Shown: positions 1 through 22,012 of the stretch, piece by piece
How positions within the stretch are numbered: the stretch's first letter is position 1
Layout of the letters: each line of letters opens with the position of its first letter
Source: a virus
Lineage: Duplodnaviria; Heunggongvirae; Uroviricota; Caudoviricetes
Reading direction: 5' to 3' (one strand)
DNA length: 24,643 nucleotides
IMG/VR virus record: IMGVR_UViG_2778261316_000001
Location: 1-24,643 of that record
Translations under genes and position numbers: made by a program
The notes under the pieces: model-generated
What the model was told of the DNA's origin: nothing
The model's input: only the letters and a program-made list of their open reading frames with translations
Database searches by the model: none

Positions 1-111
1 TCCACCTGCAAAATAAGTGGGTGCTTAAGTTACAGGATCCTGGATTCGGGACCAGACGGTACTCAGACGACGCTTACACTTCAGGAGGCATAACAAAAGG
101 AGTACAACGAT

Positions 112-867
112 ATGTCAACTCAACCCTTAATGAAGCATGAAGTAGTTCTTCCGGTCATCGTTGACGGCTATCACTGGGCCTGTAATCAGGACCGTATGTG
201 GAACCTGAACGAGCTACATAGGACGCTTGGGCTTCCACCTGCTAAGGAGCCGGGTCAGTGGCGTAGCTCTCTAAAAGACAAGCTCGTTAAAGATGCAAAT
301 TTGCATGTTTTAGCAGGACGCTCCGGTGGCACACTGGCAACTGAGGAAGCGGCTATTGCCTATGCGATGTGGGTCTCTGACGATTTCTACCTAAAGGTCA
401 TCCGTGCTTTCATCGCTTTACGTAACGACAAAGTGTCAGAAGCTAAGGCGCTGGCGCAGGACTCCAAGGAACTTAAGGGTCTCAAGCCTATAGCCCGTAA
501 CTGGCTGGAAAAGCTGGATAACCCGAAGCAGGGCCACACCCTGACAGAGTGTCTTAAGAATCTCGACTTCAGGCTAGGTACAAAGCTGGTATCAGCCAAG
601 GCTCTTAATGCCGTATTGAAGTCAGGGCGTATAGCTAATCCCTTCTATAGTCGCAAGCTGGACGGTCGAGGACAGCCTGTATTTGACATCTCGTCAGGTG
701 GCTGGATGACCAGCTTCAATCCGAAGGGTCTGGAGAACGGCTATTACCGTCTTCAGGATAACCACTACAACGGTCAGGAGGGGCTTAAGGTCCTCACCAA
801 GGGTTACGAGTGGCTTAAGTCCAACAAGGTCGAGCTGGTTCGTCTGTGCGCTAAGGGAGGACTCTAA
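112..867 (+). CDS. KilA-N-like domain protein (phage antirepressor/regulator-like), 251 aa
   Basis: ORF preceded by AGGAGG...AAGGAG; N-terminal ~100 aa resemble KilA-N/APSES DNA-binding domain pattern (e.g. EEAAIAYAMWVSDDFYLKVIRAF). Domain call from memory, not searched. Confidence 0.45.
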   Translation: MSTQPLMKHEVVLPVIVDGYHWACNQDRMWNLNELHRTLGLPPAKEPGQWRSSLKDKLVKDANLHVLAGRSGGTLATEEAAIAYAMWVSDDFYLKVIRAFIALRNDKVSEAKALAQDSKELKGLKPIARNWLEKLDNPKQGHTLTECLKNLDFRLGTKLVSAKALNAVLKSGRIANPFYSRKLDGRGQPVFDISSGGWMTSFNPKGLENGYYRLQDNHYNGQEGLKVLTKGYEWLKSNKVELVRLCAKGGL

Positions 868-868
868 G

Positions 869-1036
869 ATGATCGACCCGCGCACACCTGAGGGTCGCAT
901 GACTCTCCGTTACCGTGGCTACCGGACTGAAGTCATCCTGAAGGAGCTTGGTCTAGACCCGGAAGATGAGACCCGCCAGCACCAATCACGAGATGAGCTA
1001 ATAGCCCAACTGGTCGCTATGAAACTGTCTGCCTAA
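869..1036 (+). CDS. Small hypothetical phage protein, 55 aa (MIDPRTPEGRMTLRYRGYRTEVILKELGLDPEDETRQHQSRDELIAQLVAMKLSA)
   Basis: ATG 1 nt after the stop of the upstream ORF, suggesting translational coupling; not in ORF track because shorter than 60 aa. Confidence 0.3.
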   Translation: MIDPRTPEGRMTLRYRGYRTEVILKELGLDPEDETRQHQSRDELIAQLVAMKLSA

Positions 1037-1132
1037 TTTTAAAACCTTTTGAGATGACCGATGCGGGGAGACCCGTAGGCGCTACTGCGTCTGCGATACC
1101 GATAGTCTCAACTCTCAAGAGGAGTAATTACT

Positions 1133-1642
1133 ATGTCTAGCAAAGCTAGTGCGTTATTCAACAACAATGACTGGAAACTCCATGTCACCGACATCAATCT
1201 CTACGAAAACACTGTGAGTCTGGACGGTCAGTCCTACCCACTGTCCTTCGCTATTAAGACCCTGATTCCGGGCTACCTGTCAGGACTGCCTGCCACCAGC
1301 CGCGAGTCCATGGAATTACTGGAAGCTCTGGCTGAAGCTGGCGTGACCATTGGAAACTTCTTCAGCAATGACCTGATGACCGCCTACCAACGTCGCCAGC
1401 AGAACAAGCGAGCCGAGGCTGAGCGTATCGCTAAAGAGCAGCGCATTCAGGCTGAGCGTATGCGTGAAGAGAACATGACCGATGCAGAGTGGCAGAAAGA
1501 GCTACAGCGCCGCAAACAGGTCAAAGCTGAGCGCCGGACCTATGGTGAGAACCTCCGCAGTGCTACCCATTCCGCTGGTCGCTCCCGTGCCGCTATTGTC
1601 GCTGACATTGAGTCAGGCGGTAACTGGATGGACAGCCTCTAA
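1133..1642 (+). CDS. Hypothetical phage protein with charged coiled-coil segment (scaffold-like), 169 aa
   Basis: RBS AAGAGGAG upstream; central AEAERIAKEQRIQAERMREE...QKELQRRKQVKAERR heptad-like charged region. Function inferred only from composition and position. Confidence 0.4.
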   Translation: MSSKASALFNNNDWKLHVTDINLYENTVSLDGQSYPLSFAIKTLIPGYLSGLPATSRESMELLEALAEAGVTIGNFFSNDLMTAYQRRQQNKRAEAERIAKEQRIQAERMREENMTDAEWQKELQRRKQVKAERRTYGENLRSATHSAGRSRAAIVADIESGGNWMDSL

Positions 1643-1716
1643 GACAGACACACAAGTGGTCCTGACCTGATGTCGGGACCCACAGTATCTAAAACTAATT
1701 TAGGAGATTGATTATT

Positions 1717-2706
1717 ATGACCATGATTAAAGATAGCTATCAGTTCGGCATTGAGCCAGTACGTATCACCGACACCGACAACATTCAGGTAAACGAAGGT
1801 CTTCCGACTAACGCCGACCCTCAGGTCTATGCCTTCCAGTTAGCTAAGCTGGTGAAGACCATGCTCAATTCTGTACTTAAAGACGCTCAGGATAACATTC
1901 CGTTCCCTGTAGAAGTCCTGCCAGCTCGCAACAGCTTACCGACGCCAATCATTGCTCACACTCTGGCTGACCGCTCTGTGGTCGTTCCTGTCCGTGGTGG
2001 TAAACGACCTGAAGTCGTGACCGCTCCGTCTGGTACTGAAATCACCGTTGAGCCGATTGAGCAAGCTATCCTCGTGTCCCACCAGACCAAGCTATGGGAC
2101 GCTAAGTCATCCACCGGATTCACTCAGGGCACACTTCAGCAGGACGCTATGAACATCTGTGAGAATGTGGTCCGTACCATCAACGCTCGCATGGTCGACG
2201 TTCTGGAGTCCTCCAAACTGTTGAAGACCGTAGAGCTTCCTGTCCTGACTGGTAGCCTGACCGCTAAGGCAGACGATATCATGGACGCTCTGTATGACAA
2301 CACCGAGCCATCTTTCGGTTCTGAGGTTTCTGACTATGGCATTATCGCCCATGAGTCACACATCAAGGCTCTCTCTCGTCTGGCTGCTAAGCAGGGCTTC
2401 TCTGGTGAAGACGCTATCGTGGATATGCTGGGTACCGACATCGCGTATTACAACGGTGAGGACAAAGGTGTGTTCATGTTGGCTAAACGCTTCACGGCCC
2501 TGAGCTTCGGCTGCTTCCGTCACGACGGTGAGAATATTACGGTCGTCCTTTCACGTGATGGCGACTCTCAGTCCCACGACTTGGAAATCCTCGGTAAAGT
2601 GTTCGTTGTCGCTGAAGCTGCTACGACCGTCAAGATGGGCACTGGCTCAGCTACTGCCGTCCTGCCTGTAGTCAAACGCCTGAAGTTCACCAAGACCGAA
2701 GCGTAA
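1717..2706 (+). CDS. Hypothetical phage structural protein, possible major capsid protein, about 329 aa
   Basis: TAGGAG 10 nt upstream of ATG at 1717 (track start 1708 is TTG); T/V/A-rich, low K/R composition and size typical of capsid proteins; follows the coiled-coil ORF. Product is a guess. Confidence 0.4.
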   Translation: MTMIKDSYQFGIEPVRITDTDNIQVNEGLPTNADPQVYAFQLAKLVKTMLNSVLKDAQDNIPFPVEVLPARNSLPTPIIAHTLADRSVVVPVRGGKRPEVVTAPSGTEITVEPIEQAILVSHQTKLWDAKSSTGFTQGTLQQDAMNICENVVRTINARMVDVLESSKLLKTVELPVLTGSLTAKADDIMDALYDNTEPSFGSEVSDYGIIAHESHIKALSRLAAKQGFSGEDAIVDMLGTDIAYYNGEDKGVFMLAKRFTALSFGCFRHDGENITVVLSRDGDSQSHDLEILGKVFVVAEAATTVKMGTGSATAVLPVVKRLKFTKTEA

Positions 2707-2711
2707 GACCA

Positions 2712-2951
2712 ATGGGTAAGAGCATTAGTAAAGGCTTCAGGTCCATCGCCAAGGGCCTGACAGGTGGTGCTGGGACTCAAGGTGGGGCTTCGGTCCCGCC
2801 TCCTGTAGCTCCTCCTGTAGCTCCTCCAGATGACGCTCAGCAAGCTGTAGTCGATACCCAAGGTCAGGAGACCGAGGGAGGTAAGACCATGAGCAGAGGT
2901 AAGTCTGGACTGAATATCAGCAGGACTTCAGGTGGTGGGCTATCACTGTGA
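2712..2951 (+). CDS. Small Gly/Pro-rich hypothetical protein, 79 aa (contains PPPVAPPVAPP)
   Basis: ORF starts 6 nt after the upstream stop, same strand as the block. Confidence 0.3.
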   Translation: MGKSISKGFRSIAKGLTGGAGTQGGASVPPPVAPPVAPPDDAQQAVVDTQGQETEGGKTMSRGKSGLNISRTSGGGLSL

Positions 2952-2961
2952 TTAACTAACT

Positions 2962-2987
2962 ATGGTCTGGACCAATGGTCTGGACCT
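2962..2987. repeat. Tandem direct repeat ATGGTCTGGACC x2 (1-nt spacer)
   Basis: Read directly: ctATGGTCTGGACCaATGGTCTGGACCtg; related copies (AAGTCCAGACC, GGTCCTGACC, AATGACACAAGTCTGG, AATGACACAAGGTCTTG) lie in 3280-3375. Confidence 0.5.
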
Positions 2988-3027
2988 GTTGTTAATGTAA
3001 TAATATAACATAACAGATAGGGGCTTT

Positions 3028-3183
3028 ATGTCTATGACTTCCGCAGACCTGAAGTCCCTCCTGACTCTGGTCTATAAACTCGTGTTCCTCTCTGTGGGTC
3101 TCTACATGGTCCTCTCTGGTCGACTCGGTGTGGATGTGTTCGACACTCTGTCTAAGGCTGTGGGTGGACTTCTAGGTCCTTAG
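3028..3183 (+). CDS. Small predicted membrane protein, 51 aa (MSMTSADLKSLLTLVYKLVFLSVGLYMVLSGRLGVDVFDTLSKAVGGLLGP)
   Basis: GGGG upstream of ATG; one hydrophobic helix; last ORF before the junction region. Confidence 0.3.
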   Translation: MSMTSADLKSLLTLVYKLVFLSVGLYMVLSGRLGVDVFDTLSKAVGGLLGP

Positions 3184-3376
3184 GTTTGGACTCACAGTGG
3201 GACCGATGGTTTCTGACAGAAAAATGTGAATGACCATCTAATACATTAAGCCAGCAGACTTCCCCCCATAGGCCCACCTCAAGTCCAGACCGAGGCCACC
3301 GGGGGTCCTGACCAGCCGTCTAGACATCCAGTCTAATGACACAAGTCTGGCACAAAGAATGACACAAGGTCTTGAC

Positions 3377-4834
3377 TCAATGCAGGACCTCAGGCCTACT
3401 AAGGGTCCGCTTCAAGTCCTTGTAGTTCCAGATGAACTTAATGGGCACATCCAGTTTATCTTTGCCGCGGACGCCGTCGCGGATTGCCGTCATTTGCGGA
3501 CCATGATCGATAGCATCTGTCCAGCTGAAGCAGGAGATTGACGTTTTGACCGGATTATCCAGCACCGGCAGGCGTTCTATGGTAATGGTATAGGTCGATT
3601 CACGCGCGCCACTATTTCCGCCGCTGATGCCGACATTGCCCGTCAAAATAGGTAACATAGCAATAGCGCGTGCAGTCAGTTCGCCGTTTGCCTGGCGTTG
3701 TGGCCCCCAGCCCTGGCAGATATAAGCGGGTTTTGCTGTGCCAATTTCACGCGCCAGTTTGATGATACGGTCCTCCGGGATACCGGTAATTTGCGAAGCC
3801 CACTGCGGCGTTTTCGCTGTTTTATCGTCACCTTCACCAAGAATATAGGCTTTATAGTGACCATTTTTGGGTGCATCTGCGGGTAAGGTTTTTTCGTCAT
3901 AGCCGACGCAGTATTTATCGAGAAAAGATTGATCAACGAGATTTTCGTTAATCAATACCCAGGCAATACCCGCAACCAGCGCGGCATCGGTGCCCGGGCG
4001 AATAGGGAGCCATTCGTCTTCACGACCGGCAGCCGTATCGGTATATCGCGGATCGATAACAATCATTTTGGCGTTCGATTTCTCGCGCGCTTTTTCAAGA
4101 AGATAAGTGATGCCACCACCGCTCATGCGGGTTTCTGCCGGGTTGTTACCAAACATCACGACCAGCTTGCTGTTTTCAATATCCGTGGTGCTGTTGCCAT
4201 CATTACTGCCGTAGGTGTAGGGCATGGCACAGGAAATTTGCGCAGTGCTGTAGGAGCCATACTGGTTGAGTGAACCGCCGTAGCAGTTCATCAGGCGTTT
4301 GACCGCCGAGGCTGATGGCGAAGAGCGGGTCATATTGCCGCCAACGATCCCCGAAGAGTACTGAATATATACAGCCTCATTGCCATATTGTTCGACGGTT
4401 TTCTTCAGGCTACTGGCGATAGTATCCAGGGCTTCATCCCAGCTAATCCGTTCGAATTTGCCTTCGCCGCGTTTGCCCACGCGTTTCATTGGGTAATTCA
4501 AGCGATCGGGATGATTAATACGCCGGCGGATGGAGCGACCGCGCAAACAGGCGCGTACCTGATGGTTGCCGTACTCATCGCTGCCGGTATTGTCAGTTTC
4601 CACCCAGGTCACTTCATTATCTTTAACATGTAGACGAAGTGCACAGCGGCTACCACAGTTGACGGAACAGGCACCCCAGACCACTTTTTCGCGGGCCTGT
4701 TGTACCGATGCTGCTGCATTGCGCAGGGTAAACGGCAAAGAAAAACCGCCTGCAGCCAGCGCCAGAGAACCTATCGCGGTAGATTTAACGAGTGTTCTGC
4801 GGCTGATGCCCACCATTCGTTCATTTTTGGACAT
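3377..4834 (-). pseudogene. ynfE: ynfE truncated: N-terminal ~471 codons of DMSO-reductase-family molybdoenzyme catalytic subunit, Tat signal present
   Basis: Begins MSKNERMVGISRRTLVKSTAIGSLALAAG (twin-arginine motif) with CxxCxxxC cluster; homology to YnfE/DmsA ends after ...VPIKFIWNY (about 3422); last 14 codons (KDLKRTLSRPEVLH) are read-through into foreign DNA. Full-length protein is about 800 aa. Confidence 0.8.
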
Positions 4835-4933
4835 AACTCACTCCCTGTTCTTTATCGTTATATAAAAGTTTATATATTGAATATTTAGCGCGCTAACAAT
4901 AGAGGGAGTCTACCCATTTTGGGTTAAGAATTA

Positions 4934-4947
4934 TTAATCCATATCAA
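4934..4947. promoter_or_regulatory. FNR-like site TTAAT-N4-ATCAA upstream of ynfE
   Basis: ttaatccatatcaa matches FNR consensus TTGAT-N4-ATCAA at 9/10 positions, about 100 bp upstream of the ynfE start; ynfE is an anaerobically expressed operon. Confidence 0.3.
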
Positions 4948-4993
4948 TAGAAGGGTATGAGTAATAAGGTGGGATTATGTTGTATGTTCAAAT

Positions 4994-5016
4994 CGCCGGA
5001 TTTGTCATATCCGGCG
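4994..5016 (-). terminator. Stem-loop downstream of ynfD (cgccggat...atccggcg), weak U tract
   Basis: 8-bp inverted repeat immediately after the ynfD stop at 5033; U-tract is poor, so intrinsic terminator is tentative. Confidence 0.3.
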
Positions 5017-5032
5017 TTCAGTCGATAATGTG

Positions 5033-5338
5033 TTACTGCGGTTCGGCAGGCGCGCCATCCTGGCTAGACTGCGCGGGAGCAGAGACGTTACCGCTGGTGG
5101 TGCGGGTATAGAGAATTTTATGCGTATCATTAGCGCAATGGCCGACGACCTGGGAATCAGGCTGATCAACCTGGTCATTGGGTACAATACTTAACGTGAA
5201 GCTGCTTTCGGGTACGCCATTATTGATAATGCGCTGTGATATATCGCTCTGTATGCGCTCACAGGATCCCGGCGCGGCGAGTACCGCGGGTGAGGCGAGG
5301 GCGAGCAGAAGCGCGGCACAGCAGGTTGAGAGTTTCAT
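5033..5338 (-). CDS. ynfD: YnfD, DUF1161 secreted protein, 101 aa
   Basis: MKLSTCCAALLLALASPAVLAAP... signal peptide; matches recalled K-12 YnfD; start taken at the internal Met of the track ORF. Confidence 0.85.
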   Translation of the reverse strand: MKLSTCCAALLLALASPAVLAAPGSCERIQSDISQRIINNGVPESSFTLSIVPNDQVDQPDSQVVGHCANDTHKILYTRTTSGNVSAPAQSSQDGAPAEPQ

Positions 5339-5445
5339 CATAAGCTCCTTACGCGAAGATAACTTCTTTAAGCATAGCATTTAACGTGTAAAGTACTGTA
5401 TTTGCTACTATGATTGAGAATCATCTCTACTCTCTGGTGACTGTT

Positions 5446-6156
5446 GTGAAATACAAATTACTACCATGCTTACTCGCGATATTCCTCACAGGATGTGACC
5501 GCACAGAGGTAACACTTTCATTTACCCCTGAGATGGCCAGTTTCTCTAATGAATTCGATTTTGATCCGCTGCGTGGTCCGGTAAAAGATTTCACTCAGAC
5601 ATTAATGGATGAGCAAGGTGAAGTGACGAAACGTGTTTCTGGGACTTTGTCGGAAGAAGGCTGTTTTGATTCACTCGAATTACTGGATCTGGAAAATAAT
5701 ACCGTGGTCGCTCTGGTACTGGACGCCAATTATTACCGTGATGCCGAGACGCTGGAGAAGAGAGTACGTTTACAGGGAAAATGCCAGCTAGCAGAATTAC
5801 CTTCTGCCGGGGTGAGTTGGGAAACCGATGATAATGGCTTCGTGATTAAAGCCAGCAGCAAACAAATGCAGATGGAATATCGCTATGATGATCAGGGTTA
5901 TCCGCTGGGTAAAACCACGAAAAGTAACGACAAAACATTATCTGTCAGCGCCACGCCATCAACGGATCCGATCAAAAAATTAGATTACACAGCGGTTACT
6001 TTACTGAATAATCAACGGGTTGGTAATGTAAAACAGAGCTGTGAATATGACAGTCACGCTAATCCGGTGGACTGTCAGCTAATCATTGTTGATGAAGGAG
6101 TAAAACCCGCCGTCGAACGGGTTTACACCATTAAAAATACGATCGATTATTATTAA
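5446..6156 (+). CDS. ynfC: YnfC, UPF0257 lipoprotein, 236 aa
   Basis: (V)KYKLLPCLLAIFLTGC lipobox; GTG start at 5446 gives the K-12 length; conserved position between ynfD and speG. Confidence 0.85.
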   Translation: MKYKLLPCLLAIFLTGCDRTEVTLSFTPEMASFSNEFDFDPLRGPVKDFTQTLMDEQGEVTKRVSGTLSEEGCFDSLELLDLENNTVVALVLDANYYRDAETLEKRVRLQGKCQLAELPSAGVSWETDDNGFVIKASSKQMQMEYRYDDQGYPLGKTTKSNDKTLSVSATPSTDPIKKLDYTAVTLLNNQRVGNVKQSCEYDSHANPVDCQLIIVDEGVKPAVERVYTIKNTIDYY

Positions 6157-6158
6157 TG

Positions 6159-6719
6159 CTATTGTGCGGTCGGCTTCAGGAGAGTCTGACCCGGTGTTTT
6201 GTGCTCTGCCAGATACTGATGCTGGAATATACACATGCGAATGGCATTACGATATTGACCATTAATAAAGAACTCGTGCATCAATTCACCTTCAACCGAA
6301 AAGCCAAGCTTGCGGTAAATGTGAATCGCTTTTTCATTCTCTTTATCAACGATCAGATACAGCTTATAGAGATTGAGAACGGTAAAGCCATAGTCCATTG
6401 CTAATTTGGCGGCACGGGTTGCCAGACCTTTCCCCTGATACTCCGGGGAGATAATTATCTGAAATTCTGCGCGGCGATGAACATGGTTAATTTCCACCAG
6501 CTCCACCAGACCGGCTTTTTCGCCGTCACATTCCACCACAAAGCGCCGTTCGCTCTGATCGTGAATATGCTTATCATACAGATCAGAGAGTTCAACAAAG
6601 GCTTCGTAGGGTTCCTCAAACCAGTAACGCATCACACTGGCGTTATTGTCGAGTTGATGTACATAGCGTAAATCTTCACGCTCCAGCGGGCGTAGCTTAA
6701 CACTGTGGGCGCTTGGCAT
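6159..6719 (-). CDS. speG: Spermidine N1-acetyltransferase SpeG, 186 aa
   Basis: Full-length match to recalled SpeG ([26 protein letters not shown]...), GNAT fold. Confidence 0.92.
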
Positions 6720-10194: not shown

Positions 10195-11475
10195 TTAATT
10201 TTTCATTGCTTCGTTATGGGGCATGGTTGGGGCAAACTCGCTTAACTGTGTATTTAACAAAGCTACCTGTGCATTATTGTTTTCAGACATCCATTTTCCG
10301 TATACCTGAAATACCATTTGCGCATCTGCATGGCCCATCTGGTTTGCTATAAATGCCGGGTTAGCACCAGCTGTCAGCGACCAGCAGGCATAAGTATGTC
10401 TCGACTGATATGATTTTCGATGGCGGAGTCCGGCACGTTTTATCGCTGCGTCCCACATCTGCCTTATTGAGTCAACGGTAAAATGGTCACCATAATTTTT
10501 TACTCTCGCTGACACTTCAGGTTGAAAAACAAAGGTGCATTTTTGTTTTTCTGTTCTGCCATACTCTCTGAGGTGAACATCAATGATATGCTCTTTGCTC
10601 AGTCTCGTTAATGTCATCTGACTCCGGAGAGCGTCGATTGCTGGCTTAATAAGATGAATGACCCGATTGGTTCCCGCCTGTGTTTTTGGTACCGTGAAAC
10701 GGTCTTTTGCTAAATTTCTCCTGATCATCATTGTTCCATTTTTCAGATCTATGTCCTCCCATCCAAGTGCACACAGCTCACCAGGGCGAACGCCAGTATA
10801 AACAGAAACACACCATAAATTTTTGGCTTGCTGATTTCTGCACGCATCGATAAGACGGATGAATTCCTCCCGCGAAAGAGGATCCGGAATGGTTCTTGAT
10901 TCCTTTAATGGCGAGATCCCCTTAAACGGGTTATCTGCCAAGTAACCGTTATCAACACCAAACTGGAACACGGCGTTAAGATTTGTCATGTAATTATTTA
11001 CAGTTACAGCCGATCTCCCTGGTTGTGTAACAATATAGTTACTTTTGGGGATCTGGTATCCAGTCAGTAGCTCTTTACGAACCTCCAGTAATTTTTCTTT
11101 ATTAATCGATGAGGCAAGATTTTTTTCACCGATTATGCTCAGGATATTTTTGATGACGGCACGGTATGTGTTGAGTGATGTTTTTGCGACTTCAGTTTCT
11201 TTCAGTGCCAGAAATTTTTCAGCCAGTTCTTTTATGGTTAAATCTTGTCGGGCCTCACCAAATTTTTCCAGATTGCGTGAGGAGGGAAACTGTTTTGCAT
11301 AGTCGAAAACACCAGTTTTTATTGCGTAACAAACAGAGGCGCGTAGTTCACCTGCAACGCGCCTGTTTTTTGCTGTGTCAGGAACCCCCAGATTTTCCCT
11401 GACTCTTACGCCTTTATAAACAAACCAGATACGTAATTTCCCTCCATGGTTTTCCACGCCTGTCGGATATTTCAT
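10195..11475 (-). CDS. int: Phage tyrosine integrase (lambda/Rac IntR-like), about 426 aa
   Basis: N-terminus MKYPTGVENHGGKLRIWFVYKGVRVRE resembles IntR-type integrases; C-terminal catalytic region with HxxR and terminal Tyr context (SYQSRHTYACW...HADAQMVFQVYGKW); adjacent to the ydfJ junction. Confidence 0.85.
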   Translation of the reverse strand: MKYPTGVENHGGKLRIWFVYKGVRVRENLGVPDTAKNRRVAGELRASVCYAIKTGVFDYAKQFPSSRNLEKFGEARQDLTIKELAEKFLALKETEVAKTSLNTYRAVIKNILSIIGEKNLASSINKEKLLEVRKELLTGYQIPKSNYIVTQPGRSAVTVNNYMTNLNAVFQFGVDNGYLADNPFKGISPLKESRTIPDPLSREEFIRLIDACRNQQAKNLWCVSVYTGVRPGELCALGWEDIDLKNGTMMIRRNLAKDRFTVPKTQAGTNRVIHLIKPAIDALRSQMTLTRLSKEHIIDVHLREYGRTEKQKCTFVFQPEVSARVKNYGDHFTVDSIRQMWDAAIKRAGLRHRKSYQSRHTYACWSLTAGANPAFIANQMGHADAQMVFQVYGKWMSENNNAQVALLNTQLSEFAPTMPHNEAMKN

Positions 11476-11509
11476 TTCAACTTCTCTCATTAGTTAGTGT
11501 GGCTTTTAG

Positions 11510-11833: not shown

Positions 11834-14305
11834 TTAAGAATCAGCCTGACTCGGGATCAGTTTTTGCCAGATAACTGAAACGTATTTTGCCTGGTAACGG
11901 GCGTCATCAAGTGCATTATGGCGCTCACCTTCGAATGGAATAGCCGTTCTGGCATCGAAGTCTATGGCTTTCCCCAGCTCAACGATTGTGCGTACATCGC
12001 GATCGTTGTAGTAACGCCACGGGCAGGGGATCCCCTGCCGTTCGTATGAACGGCGCAAAATCGTGTTGTCGAAGTTGGCTCCATTTCCCCAAACCTGAAC
12101 AAAAAATTCACCGGAGTTTTCGTCGATAAATTCCCGCAATTGTAACAGTGCATCATCTAACGGGATTTCATCGGTCATAATGGCAGATTGCGCTTCGCGT
12201 GATTGCTTAAGCCACCATTTAATGGTGTCCCGATCAATGACTCCGCCAGCAGTTTCCAGATCGATAGTCTTACTAAATTCCGGTCCCATATCTCCGGTTT
12301 GCGGATCGAAAAATATTGCACCTATTGAGATGATCGGGGCATCAGGATTTTTTCCCATGGTTTCAAGGTCGATCATTAGATGGTCACACGTCCTGCTGGT
12401 GGATGTGATTTCGTGATGACCGTTCACCTTAATTGAGTGATCTGCCGTCTCGCCAGTTTCATTATCGCTATTGTGATGCTGATTGCCGCCAGTGTTCTCC
12501 TTGTGTGGATGTTCAGCGCCTTCCATTTCCTCCAGATCATCTTCCTGAACTTCAACCTGATACTCTTCATCGAATGTTTCCTGGTATGTTGCGTCGCCCA
12601 TCACCGCGCCACAATCAGGGCAGTTGCCGCCGCCGGTCTGACCGCAGGCGGTGCAGACTTTTTCCACTTCCAGTTGCGCCACTGGTTCAGGCTGTTTCGT
12701 TTCTGGCTCGTTTTGTAACGCATTTGTGCTGTTTTGTTCCGCTTTTTGGTAGTTCCGTTCCGATTCATGCTGGTTCTGGTTCACAGAATCGCGGGTCTGG
12801 ATCCCCTTAACCCATTTCGGATCATTCGGGTCACTAATCCCTTCAACAAATTCACCACGTGATGCAGCAAGCAACTTATCGGCGTCAGGCTGGCTGATAT
12901 TGGCTGCCTGCATAATTTTGTTTACTTCGTCAGCGGTAACTTTTATCGGCTCTGGTTGTTCTGAATCTTCAGCGGTATCTACATTTTGCGGTAAGCCCGT
13001 GTATGTGCCATTTTTTCGGGCAAAATATTCTTCTTTTGTGATTTCAGTGGCGCCAGCAGCCAGTGCCTTATCCAGACCAGAAAGTTTGTTTGCGCGACCG
13101 TATTTTTCTCCGTCCTTATCTGCGAAGAGGAAATAGAACGGCCCCTCACGCTCTACAGATGGTTCAGCTTCCGGCGCGGTTTCATTTTTTGGGATATCAG
13201 ATACCTCAGTTTCCACTGCATCAGTTTGTGTTTCTGATGACTGGAGAACATCAACAGTGCCCAGGTCTGTTTCTTCATTCTCAAACACGCCCTTTGTCGT
13301 CAGGTATTCGCAGATATATTTGTTCAGTGCTATGGGATCTTTGTGAATGTCGATCGGACGCTCACGGACAAGGCCAAAAATAGTCTGGCGGTCGTAGCGA
13401 AGGGCATCAGGCTGTTTGCGCATTGATGCCGAGATACGCTTCCAGTCTTCGCGGTCGTTGTCGATAACTTCTTTTTTTGCCCAGCGATGGATGCTGCCGT
13501 CAATGTTTCCGGCATCCACATCACCAGGCCAGAGAGCGTAGGCCAGTTCGTCATCCAGTGTTTTCCATGTCTGCTTGTATTCGCGATGAATGGCAGCAAT
13601 GACCGGGCTGATTTTTCCTGTTGAATTTTCAGTGTACTGTTGATTGGTTCTGGCGCGGGCGAGATCAACAACAGACGTGTATTTTCCGGTTTCCTTGCGT
13701 TCACCTTCGCGACGTTTTTTCCAGATGCGCATCTCTGCCTGAATTTCGGGCCATTTAGCACCAGGAATACATTTATGCTTAACCCACCCAATGGCGTGCA
13801 ACTTAAGCTCCGGATACATGGCGTTAACTTCTGGCATTTTCATCAACGCTTCAACGATATGTCCGTCGAATGTTGCCATGTCTTCCTGCAACAATTCCTG
13901 TGCGCTAATAACCATATCAACGGTGATGTTTTCACATGTGTCGAACTTAACCATGACAGCGTTCTGTACTTCAGGGGCCAGCTTGTCAAAAGTGACGTTC
14001 ATCGGATCGGATTCAGTCTCAACCGGGACAAAAGAAGCAGACTCCTCATCCCAGCGGTTTTCCTGCATATATTCAGCATCCCATGAATCGAGGGCAGGGC
14101 GGGGTATGCCAGGTTTATCCTCGCAGACAATAAATTTATAAGCGCAGTCCTGAGCAGCCGGATAATGTTCCAGGAACTGCCAGTGAAATTTTGCTCGAGC
14201 ACGGCGTTCGTCGCCAGCTTCAATGGCTGTGGCTACAGCCACAGCGCCTTCTTCCCTTGTTGCCAGTTCGTCAGGAATAGCGGCGCAAATAAAGACTTTA
14301 CTCAT
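11834..14305 (-). CDS. RecE-like exonuclease VIII family protein with C-terminal DnaQ-like (DEDDh) 3'-5' exonuclease domain and internal Cys4 zinc ribbon, 823 aa
   Basis: Middle segment DADKLLAASRGEFVEGISDPNDPKWVKGIQTRD matches a recalled RecE segment; C-terminus has MIDLETMG, WGNGANFDN and HNALDDARY (Exo I/II/III motifs); CTACGQTGGGNCPDCG zinc ribbon. Confidence 0.7.
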   Translation of the reverse strand: MSKVFICAAIPDELATREEGAVAVATAIEAGDERRARAKFHWQFLEHYPAAQDCAYKFIVCEDKPGIPRPALDSWDAEYMQENRWDEESASFVPVETESDPMNVTFDKLAPEVQNAVMVKFDTCENITVDMVISAQELLQEDMATFDGHIVEALMKMPEVNAMYPELKLHAIGWVKHKCIPGAKWPEIQAEMRIWKKRREGERKETGKYTSVVDLARARTNQQYTENSTGKISPVIAAIHREYKQTWKTLDDELAYALWPGDVDAGNIDGSIHRWAKKEVIDNDREDWKRISASMRKQPDALRYDRQTIFGLVRERPIDIHKDPIALNKYICEYLTTKGVFENEETDLGTVDVLQSSETQTDAVETEVSDIPKNETAPEAEPSVEREGPFYFLFADKDGEKYGRANKLSGLDKALAAGATEITKEEYFARKNGTYTGLPQNVDTAEDSEQPEPIKVTADEVNKIMQAANISQPDADKLLAASRGEFVEGISDPNDPKWVKGIQTRDSVNQNQHESERNYQKAEQNSTNALQNEPETKQPEPVAQLEVEKVCTACGQTGGGNCPDCGAVMGDATYQETFDEEYQVEVQEDDLEEMEGAEHPHKENTGGNQHHNSDNETGETADHSIKVNGHHEITSTSRTCDHLMIDLETMGKNPDAPIISIGAIFFDPQTGDMGPEFSKTIDLETAGGVIDRDTIKWWLKQSREAQSAIMTDEIPLDDALLQLREFIDENSGEFFVQVWGNGANFDNTILRRSYERQGIPCPWRYYNDRDVRTIVELGKAIDFDARTAIPFEGERHNALDDARYQAKYVSVIWQKLIPSQADS

Positions 14306-18230: not shown

Positions 18231-18653
18231 GTGGCAAAAGTTTTTACACAAGAAGAGCGGGAAAAAATTAAATGGCAGGTGGTGGAACTCGTGCGCCAGA
18301 GCGGCCGTGAGACGTTACGGCAACTGGAAGCTAAAACAGGTGCGACTAGATATCTGATGAGCGTTCTTGCCAGAGAGCTGGTAGCCAGTGGCGATGTATA
18401 CAACTCCGGCTACGGGTTATTCCCCTCTGAACAGGCGCGTAAGGACTGGCAAAACGCCCGCAAAAAACTCTCGAGGGCAAAGGTGAAGAAACCTGCTGTG
18501 GTTGATCCGGACCTTATCTGGTCATCACCTGACGGAGAAATACGTCGCTACGACAGTCGCCTAAACATAATCTGTCGCGAGTGCCGGAAGAGCGAAGTTA
18601 TGCAGCGCATACTGGCTTTCTATCAGGGTAATTTTCAGGACGTGGCGCAGTGA
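18231..18653 (+). CDS. Hypothetical prophage protein, 140 aa (GTG start)
   Basis: ORF after the replication gene, overlapping the methyltransferase start (GTGA); basic, with a CxxC pair (CRECRK). Confidence 0.4.
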   Translation: MAKVFTQEEREKIKWQVVELVRQSGRETLRQLEAKTGATRYLMSVLARELVASGDVYNSGYGLFPSEQARKDWQNARKKLSRAKVKKPAVVDPDLIWSSPDGEIRRYDSRLNIICRECRKSEVMQRILAFYQGNFQDVAQ

Positions 18654-19139
18654 GTGCACCGGCAACCATTCTTGATATGTGCTGTGGCAGCCGCATGTTC
18701 TGGTTCGATAAGTCTGACAAACGGGCGATATTCAGCGATATCAGAAAAGAAGGATACACATTACGCAATGGGAGACGCTTGATTATCAGCCCTGACATTA
18801 TCGCAGATTTTCGTGCATTATCATTTGCAGACGCATCTTTTTCGATGGTTGTATTAGACCCTCCGCATCTTGAGCGTGTTGGTGATAACGCCTGGATGGG
18901 AAAGAAATATGGACGGCTGAATAAAGATGCCTGGCGTGATGATTTGCGACAGAGATTTAAAGAAGCTTTTCGGGTGTTGAGGCCGCACGGCGTTCTGATT
19001 TTTTAATGGAATGAAACGCAAATACCGGTAAGCCAGATTCTGGCACTGACAGATAGAAAGCCTGTTATCTGTCAACGAACAGGGAAAAAACGATAAAACC
19101 CACTGGATTATTTTTATGAAAGAGGCATCCAGTGAGTAG
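18650..19139 (+). pseudogene. Phage DNA methyltransferase (DPPH motif) disrupted by an in-frame TAA and a frameshift in an A-run
   Basis: ILDMCCGSR (motif I-like) and VVLDPPH (motif IV); in-frame TAA at 19004-19006 inside ...GVLIF*WNETQIPVSQ...; reading shifts frame in AAAAAA at 19085-19090 to continue ...NDKTHWIIFMKEASSE. Confidence 0.6.
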
Positions 19140-19616
19140 ATTCGTAAGGTTACAGATACGTATATCTGAATAATTAAATTCAGTTCTGTAAATAAAACTT
19201 AATCCTTAACCGGATGGATTTCTGCACCCTCAGAACATCAGGAGGCCGCCCGAAAGGGCGGTAGTGAAATGCGAAAGTTCAAAATTATTATTGAAACGGA
19301 AATAGCTGGTGGAGATTTTGAGGATGTATTCGAAGTGGACGATGACGCAACACCTGATGAAATTCATGACGGAGCATAAGAAATTTTCTTTAACTACTGC
19401 AATTACTCATACCACGAAATAAAAGACGATGAGGAAGAACAAAGTGGCTGATTTTTGTTCAGCTAAATATAACATCAGTTTTGAAGAGCGGGATGAACTA
19501 TTAATGGACTATGGTGAATTACGCGGTGGAAGTGCTGCTGATGTCGAATCCTAGCGTGATGACTATGAAGCGGGAAAAACTCCGGTCGAAGCATATTGTG
19601 ATGAGTGGGGCGATGA

Positions 19617-19871
19617 ATGAGCGAGATTAATTATCAGGAAGGGCATGAAACGGCGGGGCAAGCAAAACCAGTGGCATGGCGATATCGCTACGTGAAAAAA
19701 GCGTTACGGACTTTCAGGGGAAGTAGTGGTCTGGTGACTGGAAATATGTACCGAAAAAAGAGGATTGTAACGACAGGCCGAACTATCAAATTCAGGCCTT
19801 ATTCACTGCCTCACCAGTCCCGGTTACATCAGAAGAACTGGTTAAAGCTGTGCACTTTTATGAACAACTAA
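19617..19871 (+). CDS. Hypothetical protein, 84 aa, possibly frameshifted
   Basis: Track ORF; an alternative frame from about 19700 gives a more protein-like continuation (WKYVPKKEDCNDRPNYQIQALFTASPVPVTSEELVKAVHFYEQLKREN) without a start codon. Confidence 0.3.
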   Translation: MSEINYQEGHETAGQAKPVAWRYRYVKKALRTFRGSSGLVTGNMYRKKRIVTTGRTIKFRPYSLPHQSRLHQKNWLKLCTFMNN

Positions 19872-20157
19872 AACGCGAAAATCCACCAACATCCGGCAAC
19901 TAGATTAATGGATTAACTATGTCGGTTAAACGACCAGCCAACTGAAAAAGCGGAAACCTGATTACAGGTTGCCAGATAAGGCAATGAGCTACCTGGCGCG
20001 GAACGGGCTGATAAGTATGGGGAATGTTTTACGATGAACCTTTAGACTAAAGAGTTTGTAACGCTATGTAAGTGATTTTTTCTGGTTTAGATATTTATAT
20101 GTCCGGCCAAATTGAGGTGTGTTTAAATGTAATTGCACATTGATTGTAGGAGGAATA

Positions 20158-20671: not shown

Positions 20672-22012
20672 ATGATCAAAGAGACTGTTACGATGAGTCA
20701 TAAGGAACTCCACCGACTTCAGATTATTCAGGAGTCAATTAATCGACATATTACTCAGGAACAAGCTGCGGCACGCATTGGCATTTCTATTCGGCAGGTT
20801 AAACGTCTGGTGCAACGGTATAGAAATGAAGGGCCTTCTGGTCTGGTTTCCCACCGACGTGGAAAGCGTCCTAATAATTCCTTTTCTACTGAATTCAGAG
20901 CAACAGTAATTTCACTCCTCAAAGGCCGTTACGCTGATTTTGGACCTACGTTTGCGTGCGAAAAATTGCGCGAGATACACGGTTTATCTTTATCCGTTGA
21001 AACTCTCAGAAAGTGGATGATAGAAGAGGGGTTATGGCGTGAACGCCGTCGTAAAATTGCCCGTATATATCAACGCCGCATGCGACGACCATCTTACGGT
21101 GAACTGATCCAGATTGATGGCTCACCTCATGACTGGTTTGAAAATCGAGGCCCCAGATGTACACTGATCGTTTTCATTGATGATGCCACCAGTGCGTTGA
21201 TGGCGTTGCGTTTTGTGCCTGCTGAAACAACCCGGGCTTACATGGAAACCCTCCGGGGTTACCTTAATGATCATGGCGTACCGCTCGCTCTCTACTCTGA
21301 TAGACACAGTATATTCAGGGTAAATAACCCAGAGCGGGAAGGTGAGCTGACCCAGTTCACTCGTGCGATAAAGACACTGGGCATCGAGCCAATCCATGCC
21401 AACAGCCCGCAGGCAAAAGGGCGGGTAGAGCGCGCCAATCAGACACTACAGGACAGGCTGGTCAAAGAAATGCGGCTTCAGAATATCAGTGATATTGAAA
21501 CAGCAAATGCATGGTTGCCGACCTTTATTGAAGCCTATAACAACCGGTTCGCTACGTCGCCTCGTACTACTGATAATGCTCATCTTGATGTGCACCATTC
21601 TGAAGAGGAACTGGGTTATATCTTCAGCCTACAGGCGAAGCGCGTTCTGTCTAAAAATCTCACTTTCCAGTACAAAAGCAGTGCGTTTCAGGTACGCAGT
21701 GAGAGCCGGGGATATCGACTTAGGCATTCGGTTGTTACTGTATGCGAGAACTTTGACGGTGAAATTAACGTTCTGTATGACGGGAAAGCGCTGGGCTGGG
21801 AAAAGTATGTTGATGGCCCGGAGCCTATACCACTGGATGATGAAAAGAGTGTCCATGAACGAGTGGATAATGCCCGTATTGATTTACGCTCAAAATACTA
21901 TGTTAAACCTAAAGCTGACCATCCCTGGCTTACGCGCCGAACGCAAAGTCATCAGCAAGTTAAGCCCCCGAAGTTACCTAAAAAGAAGCCTGATCCCGAT
22001 AAAAAAGATTGA
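20672..22012 (+). CDS. DDE transposase (HTH N-terminus plus rve integrase-core domain), 446 aa; IS481/ISNCY-like
   Basis: N-terminal HTH (ITQEQAAARIGISIRQVKRLVQRY), catalytic core with D...D...E pattern (IQIDGSPHDWF..., LYSDRHSIF, ...RVERANQTLQ), basic C-tail. Family assignment from memory. Confidence 0.8.
   Translation: MIKETVTMSHKELHRLQIIQESINRHITQEQAAARIGISIRQVKRLVQRYRNEGPSGLVSHRRGKRPNNSFSTEFRATVISLLKGRYADFGPTFACEKLREIHGLSLSVETLRKWMIEEGLWRERRRKIARIYQRRMRRPSYGELIQIDGSPHDWFENRGPRCTLIVFIDDATSALMALRFVPAETTRAYMETLRGYLNDHGVPLALYSDRHSIFRVNNPEREGELTQFTRAIKTLGIEPIHANSPQAKGRVERANQTLQDRLVKEMRLQNISDIETANAWLPTFIEAYNNRFATSPRTTDNAHLDVHHSEEELGYIFSLQAKRVLSKNLTFQYKSSAFQVRSESRGYRLRHSVVTVCENFDGEINVLYDGKALGWEKYVDGPEPIPLDDEKSVHERVDNARIDLRSKYYVKPKADHPWLTRRTQSHQQVKPPKLPKKKPDPDKKD

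Follow-up and report, generated by a model that had tools for sequence, protein, structure and literature searches.

What kind of element carries the six tightly packed genes at the left end of the IMG/VR virus record IMGVR_UViG_2778261316_000001 (Caudoviricetes)? The stretch analysed, called the window here, comprises positions 1 to 24,643 of that record, 24,643 nt in all. A preliminary description took the genes to be a compact phage-like block and named an uncharacterised prophage, a satellite and a non-structural system as possible affiliations. All six ORFs were found at the coordinates given there, all on the + strand, and the region is organised as follows.

1-77, no strand assigned: outer end of an IS66-family element, foreign to the island and inserted 35 nt 5' of the KilA-N start codon
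78-111, + strand: KilA-N leader and ribosome-binding site (cttcaggaggcataacaaaaggagtacaacgat), 100% identical to the complete island copy L001 from 78 onwards
112-867, + strand: KilA-N ORF, 251 aa
869-1036, + strand: p55 ORF, 55 aa, beginning 1 nt past the KilA-N stop
1133-1642, + strand: DUF6971-like ORF, 169 aa
1708-2706, + strand: capsid ORF, 332 aa from the TTG at 1708 or 329 aa from the ATG at 1717
2712-2951, + strand: gp7.3-like ORF, 79 aa
2964-2996, + strand: terminator-like hairpin, GGTCTGGACC AAT GGTCTGGACC followed by a T-rich run, directly 3' of the gp7.3-like gene
3028-3183, + strand: ORF of 51 aa with a single hydrophobic segment
3337-3372, + strand: TGACACAA(G/A) repeats at the right island end, candidates for arm-type binding sites of the integrase
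3377-4834, - strand: 5' portion of ynfE (selenate/DMSO-reductase-family subunit A), the target gene, truncated by the insertion and outside the element
3423-3439, no strand assigned: attR core GTAGTTCCAGATGAACT, the right boundary of the island

The six ORFs are more than chance reading frames. Purifying selection is seen in 6/6 of them when they are compared with diverged island copies (pN/pS 0.00-0.49, mostly 0.04-0.25). Homologs of the capsid protein begin at the ATG at 1717, which is therefore the likelier start. Consensus scans found no sigma-70-type promoter on the + strand of the block; the hairpin at 2964-2996 comes from such a scan, in which terminator-like hairpins show no excess over the shuffled expectation, and is a presumptive terminator. 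The block is rare in E. coli, being covered to at least 80% in 28 of 5426 complete genomes. It makes up the right two-thirds of an island of ~6.4 kb and is thus an incomplete unit, with the integrase and the promoters of the island lying to the left of the window. Positions 1-77 cannot be aligned to intact islands, and the alignment begins at 78. These 77 nt are multicopy, with up to 10 places per genome, plasmids included; positions 59-77 are the reverse complement of TGTAAGCGTCGTCTGAGTA, and in strain AREA_C483 a copy of the sequence adjoins IS66 tnpA-tnpB-tnpC. As the IS66-family element cuts the block off from the left part of the island, promoters included, the copy in the window strain may be impaired.

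The six genes form the principal operon of a mobile island, 6.4 kb long, that has integrated into ynfE of E. coli. The gene order is a 526-aa tyrosine integrase, a small variable gene, KilA-N, p55, the DUF6971 protein, the HK97 capsid protein, the gp7.3 homolog and the 51-aa membrane protein; the integrase gene lies outside the window, and the tyrosine recombinases of the islands measure 526-532 aa. In the complete copy L002, a 17-nt direct repeat (16/17 identical) flanks the island inside ynfE, with its two copies 6419 bp apart, and the TGACACAA(G/A) repeat family adjoins both ends (17106, 23249, 23260). RefSeq annotation of matching genomes splits ynfE into two pseudogene halves around the island, and this gene is among those interrupted by integrative elements (PMC7192596). 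An integrase with flanking att repeats is found in phage satellites, as is the lack of most genes for a particle or for autonomous replication. Both apply to the island, in which the only families recognised are the integrase, KilA-N, DUF6971, the HK97 protein and gp7.3. No polymerase, primase, replication, portal, terminase or tail family was detected in Pfam, PHROG and NCBIfam scans, with NCBIfam recognising the integrase alone, and an Rfam scan gave no match.

The gene-neighbourhood comparison proposed in the preliminary description places the block in a recurrent integrase island and not in a full phage. A layout of ~6 kb with an integrase, a KilA-N/Bro-N/pRha gene, DUF6971 and an HK97 protein was present in 7/7 remote contexts examined, at capsid identities of 20-42%; in no case did it lie within a full phage. 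Capsid proteins with at least 90% identity occur in Escherichia, Shigella, Citrobacter, Leclercia and Buttiauxella together with swapped integrases. Full-text literature searches returned no description of the island; the one related mention was that of ynfE among interrupted genes (PMC7192596).

The 332-aa protein, previously called capsid-like with a structural check recommended, is predicted to have the HK97 capsid fold. AF2 with 12 close sequences gave a pLDDT of 36 and no usable fold; a fold was obtained only once an exhaustive HMM search had added remote homologs, and the fold search with this model retrieved solved capsid and encapsulin shell proteins. Searches of Pfam, PHROG and the PDB with the capsid sequences and the family profile found no capsid match, and neither the 329-aa nor the 79-aa protein had a tblastn match in 50,697 phage genomes. 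The complete fold is kept in the family down to 20% identity, under purifying selection. Two homologs carry Ig-like C-terminal domains, which fit with an exposed virion surface. Judged by these searches, the capsid-protein lineage is confined to islands of this kind and absent from sequenced phages.

The gene directly upstream of the capsid gene always belongs to the family of the 169-aa protein. This protein has a globular N-terminal half, then a highly charged helical segment, in line with its earlier description as a charged coiled coil, and a conserved C-terminal NWMDxL tail. It scores 14 bits on DUF6971 (PF22318; cut-off 27), and homologs 86-95% identical to it have precomputed PF22318 matches. 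The family alignment reaches distant islands, and a DUF6971 gene adjoins the capsid gene in L007 and L110/L111. A profile check, suggested earlier for a possible scaffold, related the family to PDB 5EUR, an 'uncharacterized protein' (E 2.7e-16); hhalign found no similarity to the K1F scaffold gp9. From its position, we infer a role as an internal scaffold or a shell-binding protein, and the conserved tail could be a scaffold anchor or a cargo anchor. Full-text literature searches found no paper mentioning DUF6971 and nothing relevant for SF216/5EUR.

The first gene of the operon encodes a KilA-N protein, as had been proposed. The 251-aa product reaches 26.6 bits against Pfam KilA-N (PF04383), above the curated cut-off of 23.8, is 36% identical to P1 KilA over residues 11-122 and matches phrog_129 'transcriptional regulator' (E 4e-14). 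A full-length homolog (29% identity) is present in the distant islands L008/L009, and the gene has a pN/pS of 0.25. Its product, a DNA-binding protein, probably serves as the island regulator or as a phage-interfering factor. The 55-aa protein, p55, is translationally coupled to KilA-N, as described earlier, and, in the enterobacterial islands that were examined, is retained along with the capsid gene and that of the 169-aa protein. By tblastn, p55 is 51-96% identical in islands with differing integrases; its pN/pS is 0.00-0.18, and it has no Pfam, PHROG, NCBIfam or PADLOC match.

The 79-aa protein, correctly described as Pro/Gly-rich, is a homolog of the T7/K1F virion protein gp7.3 (host-range/adsorption, tail-associated). 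It is 38% identical to K1F gp7.3 over the full length (pairwise E 2.6e-14), the two proteins have the ends GKSISK... and ...SRTSGGG(I/L)S(I/L) in common, and both the full-length homology and the terminal motifs place it in the gp7.3 family. It also matches phrog_1320 (E 1.2e-11) and scores 19 bits on Pfam VirionAssem_T7, under the cut-off of 25. The gp7.3-like gene is present in ynfE-type islands and was undetected in islands with other integrases. The 51-aa product has one hydrophobic stretch, as expected from its description as a membrane protein, and no family match in Pfam or PHROG; the pN/pS of its ORF is 0.11-0.37. In L005 it is 82% identical over 40 aa, in an island with an 86% identical integrase and a 44% identical capsid protein; the 51-aa gene moves together with the integrase/att module.

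Promoters of the T7 group (Studiervirinae) have a consensus of ~23 nt, with a conserved part from -7 to +6 (CACTATAGGGAGA) and a phage-specific part from -12 to -8. Complete islands possess one or more promoters for T7-type single-subunit RNA polymerases, located upstream of the block and co-oriented with it. In the complete copies L001 and L002 the promoter ACTATCACTATAGGGAGA is identical in 25/25 nt, with 0 mismatches, to phi10 of coliphage K1F (at 21001, upstream of gene 10), and the identity takes in the specificity region from -12 to -8 and the GGGAGA from +1 to +6. An exact match of 24 nt is found in K1F, EcoDS1, CR44b and other Kayfunavirus phages, at 7-9 places in each genome, and is annotated as 'promoter' in several of them. 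The island sequence is thus a T7-group promoter; it lies in the left part of the island, outside the window, and the window itself contains no CACTATAGG core. Among related loci, 46 of 49 have this core on the + strand within 5 kb upstream of the capsid gene, and 0 have it there on the - strand. The core density is 0.41/kb upstream of the capsid gene vs 0.0046/kb in flanking DNA (~90-fold).

Other lineages have promoters of their own. A sister lineage that also occupies this ynfE site, and whose capsid protein is 42-44% identical, has a 31-nt exact match to a promoter of Citrobacter phage CR8 that occurs 11 times per CR8 genome, and more distant lineages have 2-4 repeated T7-type promoters each, with their own specificity region. 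Neither the second promoter type of L002 nor the L007 promoter has an exact match among sequenced phages. A hairpin of 28-32 nt just 3' of the integrase gene is identical to one in the Kayfunavirus leader between phiOR and gene 19.5, at the right genome end; this hairpin is all that the left non-coding region of the island shares with Kayfunavirus phages, and blastn of window positions 78-3440 against phages gave no match.

Exact K1F-type late promoters together with an own capsid-shell protein point to an undescribed kind of phage satellite as the most likely identity of the island. The satellite affiliation, one of those suggested at the outset, is now the best explanation on the strength of the promoters, the att repeats and the HK97 shell gene. 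We consider it reasonably likely that the six genes are the late operon of an integrative island (~6.4 kb) acting as a satellite, a molecular parasite, of virulent K1F-group (Kayfunavirus) T7-like phages. In an uninfected cell, the operon would be silent. Upon infection by a K1F-type phage, the phage RNA polymerase would transcribe the island at late-gene levels, and the DUF6971 protein and the island HK97 protein would build a satellite-specific shell, presumably on the helper portal and core. The particle would be finished by the helper terminase and tail, with the island gp7.3 homolog replacing or competing with that of the helper. The island has no replication gene, hence replication is probably driven by the helper replisome, primed at the phage-type promoters. 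Excised island DNA would be packaged and carried to new cells, where the integrase would insert it into ynfE. Helper capsid assembly would probably be damaged as a side effect, and the bacterial population would be protected.

A wider reading, to which we give about even odds, holds jointly that the islands are satellites of virulent T7-like (Autographiviridae-type) phages and the first of this kind, that they copy late promoters instead of using an own induction regulator, that they have a private HK97 shell and that their lineages track helper genera. Within this joint reading, the hijacking logic would be one undescribed for other satellites, with the helper polymerase transcribing the island and possibly priming its replication, and the shell would derive from an ancient capsid-protein lineage. 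The lineages would follow one T7-like genus or another by exchanging the specificity region of the promoter, and islands with two promoter types in tandem, as some have, would exploit two helpers. No satellite of T7-like phages came up in full-text literature searches, and none is listed in a commentary of December 2025 on the known satellite families.

Few phages are as well understood or as widely used as T7 and its relatives, which serve in expression systems and in phage therapy (E. coli K1, Klebsiella, Citrobacter). If the satellite reading is true, the island would offer a satellite in E. coli that is both minimal and amenable to genetics, 6.4 kb in size, switched on by a phage polymerase and equipped with its own capsid, and a natural case of promoter mimicry as an infection sensor. 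It might also account for otherwise unexplained resistance to Kayfunavirus therapy phages, or for poor yields of them, and would give genes a new path from one enterobacterial genus to another. The work defines a capsid-protein lineage and gives a context to the domain DUF6971 (PDB 5EUR).

The same promoters could, with a rather low probability, be the sensor of a phage-triggered defence island that is not a transmissible satellite. Here the phage polymerase would over-express a decoy capsid protein, a gp7.3 mimic and the KilA-N protein, so that helper capsid/tail assembly is poisoned or the cell is killed, and the island would spread by other routes only. The wiring of the promoters to a phage polymerase fits this scheme, as does the absence from the island of packaging genes and of a recognisable pac signal. 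It also fits that no excised form was found: attP junction patterns had 0 matches in viral and metagenome contigs, and no terminal overlap was seen in the contigs tested, island-sized ones of ~6.2-6.9 kb included. The island is present in 13 metagenome contigs of 6.2-6.9 kb, 8 of which align to the ynfE-type reference L034; seven of these eight have only ~30-150 bp of ynfE flank per end, and the remaining one begins within the island. Because of these short ynfE flanks at the ends, such contigs are probably assembly breaks from presence/absence polymorphism and not episomes. Matches in IMG/VR were rejected as evidence of packaging, being chromosomal 'prophage' calls that take in a neighbouring lambdoid prophage. 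In a PADLOC scan, the KilA-N domain partly matches the candidate defence family PDC-S22 (E 1e-7), but this was the only match, and no known defence system was detected. The integrase, the att sites and the occurrence of near-identical copies in five genera speak for frequent horizontal transfer and against a purely defensive role. So do the retention of a complete HK97 fold over such divergence and the dedicated partner that is always kept in the scaffold position, and an intracellular decoy would have little use for surface Ig-like domains. As a rule, known satellites interfere with their helpers, which is in keeping with a defence function, and the defence and satellite lifestyles are compatible with each other.

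It is doubtful that the HK97 protein is a capsid-size redirector like SaPIbov5 Ccm, co-assembling with helper gp10 into small capsids that fit the 6.4-kb island. BLAST and hhalign profile comparison found no detectable similarity between the capsid protein and K1F gp10, which makes mixed lattices harder to envisage, and a separate scaffold-position protein stands beside the capsid gene in every lineage. It is very improbable that the island is left over from a temperate T7-like prophage that decayed, or is a mobile element bearing an encapsulin-type nanocompartment, and today has nothing to do with phage infection: the fold is shared with encapsulins, but the ~6-kb gene set is kept under purifying selection across lineages 20-40% identical, pseudogenised polymerase, portal or terminase remnants are absent, the capsid protein shows no sequence relationship to gp10 of Kayfunavirus phages, promoters that still match those of current phages exactly indicate ongoing selection, Pfam and NCBIfam scans revealed no cargo enzyme, the adjacent DUF6971 protein included, and an encapsulin would have no use for a gp7.3 homolog. 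The decayed prophage was accordingly rejected for the conserved architecture and the lack of remnants of other phage genes. Gokushovirus-like and inovirus-like prophages were rejected as well; an integrase is present, and the microvirus capsid protein and the morphogenesis ATPase (an inovirus hallmark), respectively, are missing.

The putative satellite was compared with known families. P4-like hallmarks (primase/helicase alpha, sid, psu, delta) were absent from the Pfam, PHROG and NCBIfam scans. The cf-PICIs (e.g. EcCI2) encode, according to the literature, every protein required for making capsids and for packaging, borrow nothing but tails and use temperate helpers. In contrast, the island is 6.4 kb long, provides only a shell protein, a putative scaffold and the gp7.3 homolog, and has promoters that point to virulent T7-like phages; from the cf-PICI set of capsid, portal, protease or scaffold, head-tail connectors and small terminase, only the capsid is recognisable. 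SaPIbov5 Ccm co-assembles with a related helper capsid protein, whereas the island capsid has no detectable kinship to gp10 of the putative helper, and host, helper type and regulation all differ. The PICMIs of Vibrionaceae resemble the putative satellite in being very small, having an integrase and depending on virulent helpers, and are described as packaged as concatemers and without capsid-remodelling genes (PMC10803314); unlike them, the island has its own HK97 capsid protein and phage-polymerase promoters. PLE of Vibrio cholerae, whose helper is ICP1, resembles the proposed satellite in exploiting a virulent phage and in being activated when that phage infects, and it makes small capsids (PMC10945586). 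However, PLE is ~18 kb, has its own replication genes and remodels the helper coat protein with the external scaffold TcaP, and is not known to have an own capsid protein or phage-polymerase promoters. The Streptomyces satellites MiniFlayer and MulchMansion encode encapsidation proteins and lack key replication genes, as the island does (PMC10690885). They have an actinobacterial host and siphovirus helpers, and are not known to mimic helper-polymerase promoters. The island promoter itself is set apart from the T7-group late (class III) promoters, such as K1F phi10, by its place in a bacterial chromosome, within an element that has no polymerase gene.

The window is a piece of E. coli chromosome. 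Complete genomes show the block as part of an island of ~6.4 kb, of which it makes up the right-hand two-thirds and which lies within ynfE, leaving that gene as two pseudogene halves. This small integrative element is bounded by a 17-nt direct repeat, GTAGTTCCAGATG(G/A)ACT, with copies 6419 bp apart, and comprises, in order, the ynfE 3′ half, a 526–532-aa tyrosine integrase gene, a variable gene for a 122–155-aa product, the genes for the KilA-N, p55, 169-aa, 329-aa, p79 and p51 proteins, and the ynfE 5′ half. Most of the block is present in 28 of 5426 complete E. coli genomes; strains with an intact ynfE island include those of NZ_OY754416 and NZ_AP027639. While ynfE is on a published list of genes that integrative elements interrupt (PMC7192596), no description of the island was found in the literature. 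The paralog downstream of ynfE, ynfF, is intact in reference genomes. A separate lambdoid (Qin/Rac-like) prophage extends from next to rspB (window 10195–~24000).

Features of the window (prophage genes by the annotation of NZ_CM194533)
1–77: end of an IS66-family element (terminal inverted repeat region), foreign to the island
3377–4834, minus strand: ynfE 5′ half, a selenate/DMSO-reductase-family catalytic subunit truncated by the island
3423–3439: right copy of the 17-nt direct repeat; TGACACAAG repeats stand just before it and are present at the island left end too
10195–11490, minus strand: prophage integrase
11834–14305, minus strand: prophage 823-aa exonuclease
After the exonuclease: dicB/ydfA-C-type genes and replication protein O of the lambdoid prophage

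The six co-directional ORFs of the preliminary description were recovered exactly where it had placed them. Against diverged copies of the element, every ORF, the three small ones included, shows a synonymous excess (pN/pS 0.00 to 0.49, mostly 0.04–0.25), and all six are therefore genes and not chance frames. For the ORF read as 332 aa, the likeliest start codon is the ATG at 1717, where its homologs begin, which would give a product of 329 aa. No sigma-70-type promoter was found on the strand of the block ORFs and no Rfam family matched the block. The assignment of the 251-aa product as KilA-N-like is borne out by a domain score above the Pfam cut-off and by 36% identity to P1 KilA across the KilA-N domain. 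A PHROG search with the 79-aa protein gave phrog_1320, 'host range and adsorption protein' (E 1e-11), and the protein aligns over its full length with the virion protein gp7.3 of K1F, a virulent T7-like Kayfunavirus phage, at 38% identity (E 2.6e-14) and with termini alike; in the examined island variants with other integrases, a gp7.3 homolog was not detected.

For the 329-aa protein, sequence searches of Pfam, PHROG and PDB found no match, tblastn against 50,697 phage genomes found none either, and there is no sequence kinship with the capsid protein of the putative helper. About 35 full-length relatives, at 20–42% identity, emerged when 1.8 billion representatives were searched exhaustively with an HMM. 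AlphaFold2 failed on a shallow alignment, and the remote relatives were needed to obtain a confident model (pLDDT 79.4, pTM 0.73), which bears out the earlier capsid-like reading: the protein is an HK97 shell protein. Its gene is always directly preceded by that of the 169-aa protein, which matches DUF6971 weakly and whose family profile finds PDB 5EUR ('uncharacterized protein', E 2.7e-16). Described previously as a charged coiled coil, the 169-aa protein contains a charged helical stretch, along with a globular N-terminal domain and a C-terminal tail that is conserved. It shows no similarity to the K1F scaffold gp9; its position and shape suggest that it is a scaffold. The 314-aa database protein P0020 joins a KilA-N N-terminus to residues ~100–329 of the capsid protein, and is either an island deletion variant or a misassembly. 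Besides its HK97 shell protein, the island codes for a partner in scaffold position and for a protein homologous to one of the virion proteins of the T7 group; replication, portal, terminase and tail genes were not recognised in it, nor was a packaging signal.

Upstream of the main operon are promoters whose use should be restricted to a T7-type phage RNA polymerase. A repeat search of a complete island identified TAAACTATCACTATAGGGAGA between the variable gene and the KilA-N gene, and 100% identical copies of a 24-nt part of it occur 7–9 times per genome in K1F, EcoDS1, CR44b, Dev2, SH3-5, PE3-1, ST31, LM33_P1 and many other Kayfunavirus phages, where several records label them promoter; the zero-mismatch copy in K1F, at 21001, lies just upstream of capsid gene 10. 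A sister lineage at the same ynfE site, with a capsid protein 42–44% identical, carries in its place TTTAAGGAAGGTACACTATAGGGAGAGACAC, which is also the sequence of the promoters of Citrobacter phage CR8 (11 per genome). More distant lineages each have 2–4 repeats of a T7-type promoter with a specificity region of their own.

Promoter repeats of islands at other loci
L007: TTCCTACCACTATAGGGAGA
L112: TTGTCATCACTATAGGGAGA
L113, T3-like: AATTAACCCTCACTATAGGGAGA
L110: ACACCCACTAATGGGAGAC

In the 5 kb that precede the capsid gene, the CACTATAGG core is present on the coding strand in 46 of 49 loci (99 matches, 0.41 per kb versus 0.0046 per kb in flanking chromosome), and on the opposite strand of the same stretch in none of the 49. 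Two promoter types stand in tandem in some islands: the complete ynfE island L002 has T7-type promoters AAGCACTCACTATAGGGG and AACTATCACTATAGGGAGA 28 bp apart (19433–19480), as do several metagenome loci. AAGCACTCACTATAGGGG has no exact match among sequenced phages. Such pairs suggest a response to two helper polymerases.

No phage-type promoter lies within the window, because the promoters are found on the left side of the inserted IS66-family element. Its insertion site, 35 nt ahead of the KilA-N start codon, places this element between the operon and the phage-type promoters of the island in this strain, and thus cuts the window copy off from the island left part. The island copy of NZ_CM194533, otherwise identical, has ISSen4 inside the capsid gene instead. 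An IS66 element is also present in a related island (L005), and IS insertion into this small island thus seems to be frequent.

The left part, outside the window, carries further sequence features in the ynfE island L001. Just after the integrase gene lies the hairpin AGGGAGGGTGATAATAATCATAATCCCTCCT (18574–18609), of which 28–32 nt are identical to a hairpin of Kayfunavirus phages that lies in the leader running from the right-end promoter to gene 19.5 and occurs in either orientation, depending on the phage. Upstream of the 122-aa gene, at 18700–18900, are three ~60-bp tandem repeats, each with TTGACAT/GTGACAT and CCTGTGAGTC, reminiscent in arrangement of the early T7 promoters, which stand in tandem and serve the host polymerase. 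Some 650 bp of non-coding DNA, with a (CCA)n run at 19868–19895, separate the phage-type promoter from the KilA-N gene and are a candidate origin or packaging region.

All seven remote homolog contexts examined share one plan: an integrase (280–511 aa, at least 420 aa in six of seven), a KilA-N/Bro-N/pRha-type DNA-binding protein, 1–2 small genes, a ~135–190-aa DUF6971-like protein, the HK97 protein and the island end. A full phage genome surrounds the capsid homolog in none of the seven. Remote islands measure about 6 kb, and L007 ~10 kb; at 4806–6502, L007 carries T7 gp0.4-family, ParE-like and HNH endonuclease genes, each behind its own T7-type promoters. In Enterobacteria the p55-p169-capsid core is 80–97% identical, with integrase (31% identity) and regulators swapped, and capsid proteins with identities of 90% or more are shared by Escherichia, Shigella, Citrobacter, Leclercia and Buttiauxella. 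Shigella flexneri SFBU1023 holds two copies of the core at different sites (L037, L042), with integrases only 31% identical; in L037, the ynfE-site copy, the integrase match is in two separated pieces. The island is also held by 13 metagenome contigs of 6.2–6.9 kb, and seven of the eight aligning to the ynfE-type reference have only short ynfE flanks at both ends. These contigs point to presence/absence polymorphism in natural populations; they do not point to an episome, as terminal overlap is absent from all of them. Searches of contigs for excised or circular forms gave nothing that would directly indicate excision, replication or packaging.

The preliminary description had left a prophage, a satellite and a non-structural system as options; we now favour the second. 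The most economical mechanism is that the island is a satellite of virulent T7-like phages, which we consider probable with moderate confidence. The operon would be silent until a matching phage delivers its polymerase, and would then be transcribed at late-gene strength; the island shell would be assembled on helper portal, core and tail parts, and the island would be packaged and move on. By analogy with the origins of T7, the helper replisome could plausibly replicate the island from its phage-type promoters. As a rough estimate, if the capacity of a 40-kb T=7 head scales with T^1.5, a T=3 head would take about 11 kb and a T=1 head 2 kb; a small shell would then hold one or two island copies, and a helper-sized head six (38.5 kb). 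The data fit both sizes equally. The strongest competing reading is that the island serves defence alone: the promoters would sense infection, and the capsid and gp7.3 homologs would poison assembly. This reading shares the promoter wiring with the satellite reading and differs solely in whether particles carry the island; we regard it as possible but rather unlikely. A co-assembly role of the HK97 protein, like that of the SaPIbov5 capsid protein Ccm, fits the island less well than a satellite does and is improbable. A prophage remnant or an encapsulin likewise fits less well, and even taken together the two are very unlikely.

Full-text searches of open-access papers found no satellite of T7-like phages, and a December 2025 commentary names P4, PICIs, cf-PICIs, PLE and a jumbo-phage satellite in its enumeration of satellite families and has no entry for T7-like phages. 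The island differs from cf-PICI, P4 and PICMI in that it does not carry the defining gene set of any of them. We class it as a probable phage satellite with putative functional steps. It is similar to PICMI and PLE in its small size and putative virulent helper; by virtue of a capsid protein of its own, it would function most like cf-PICI or a satellite virus.
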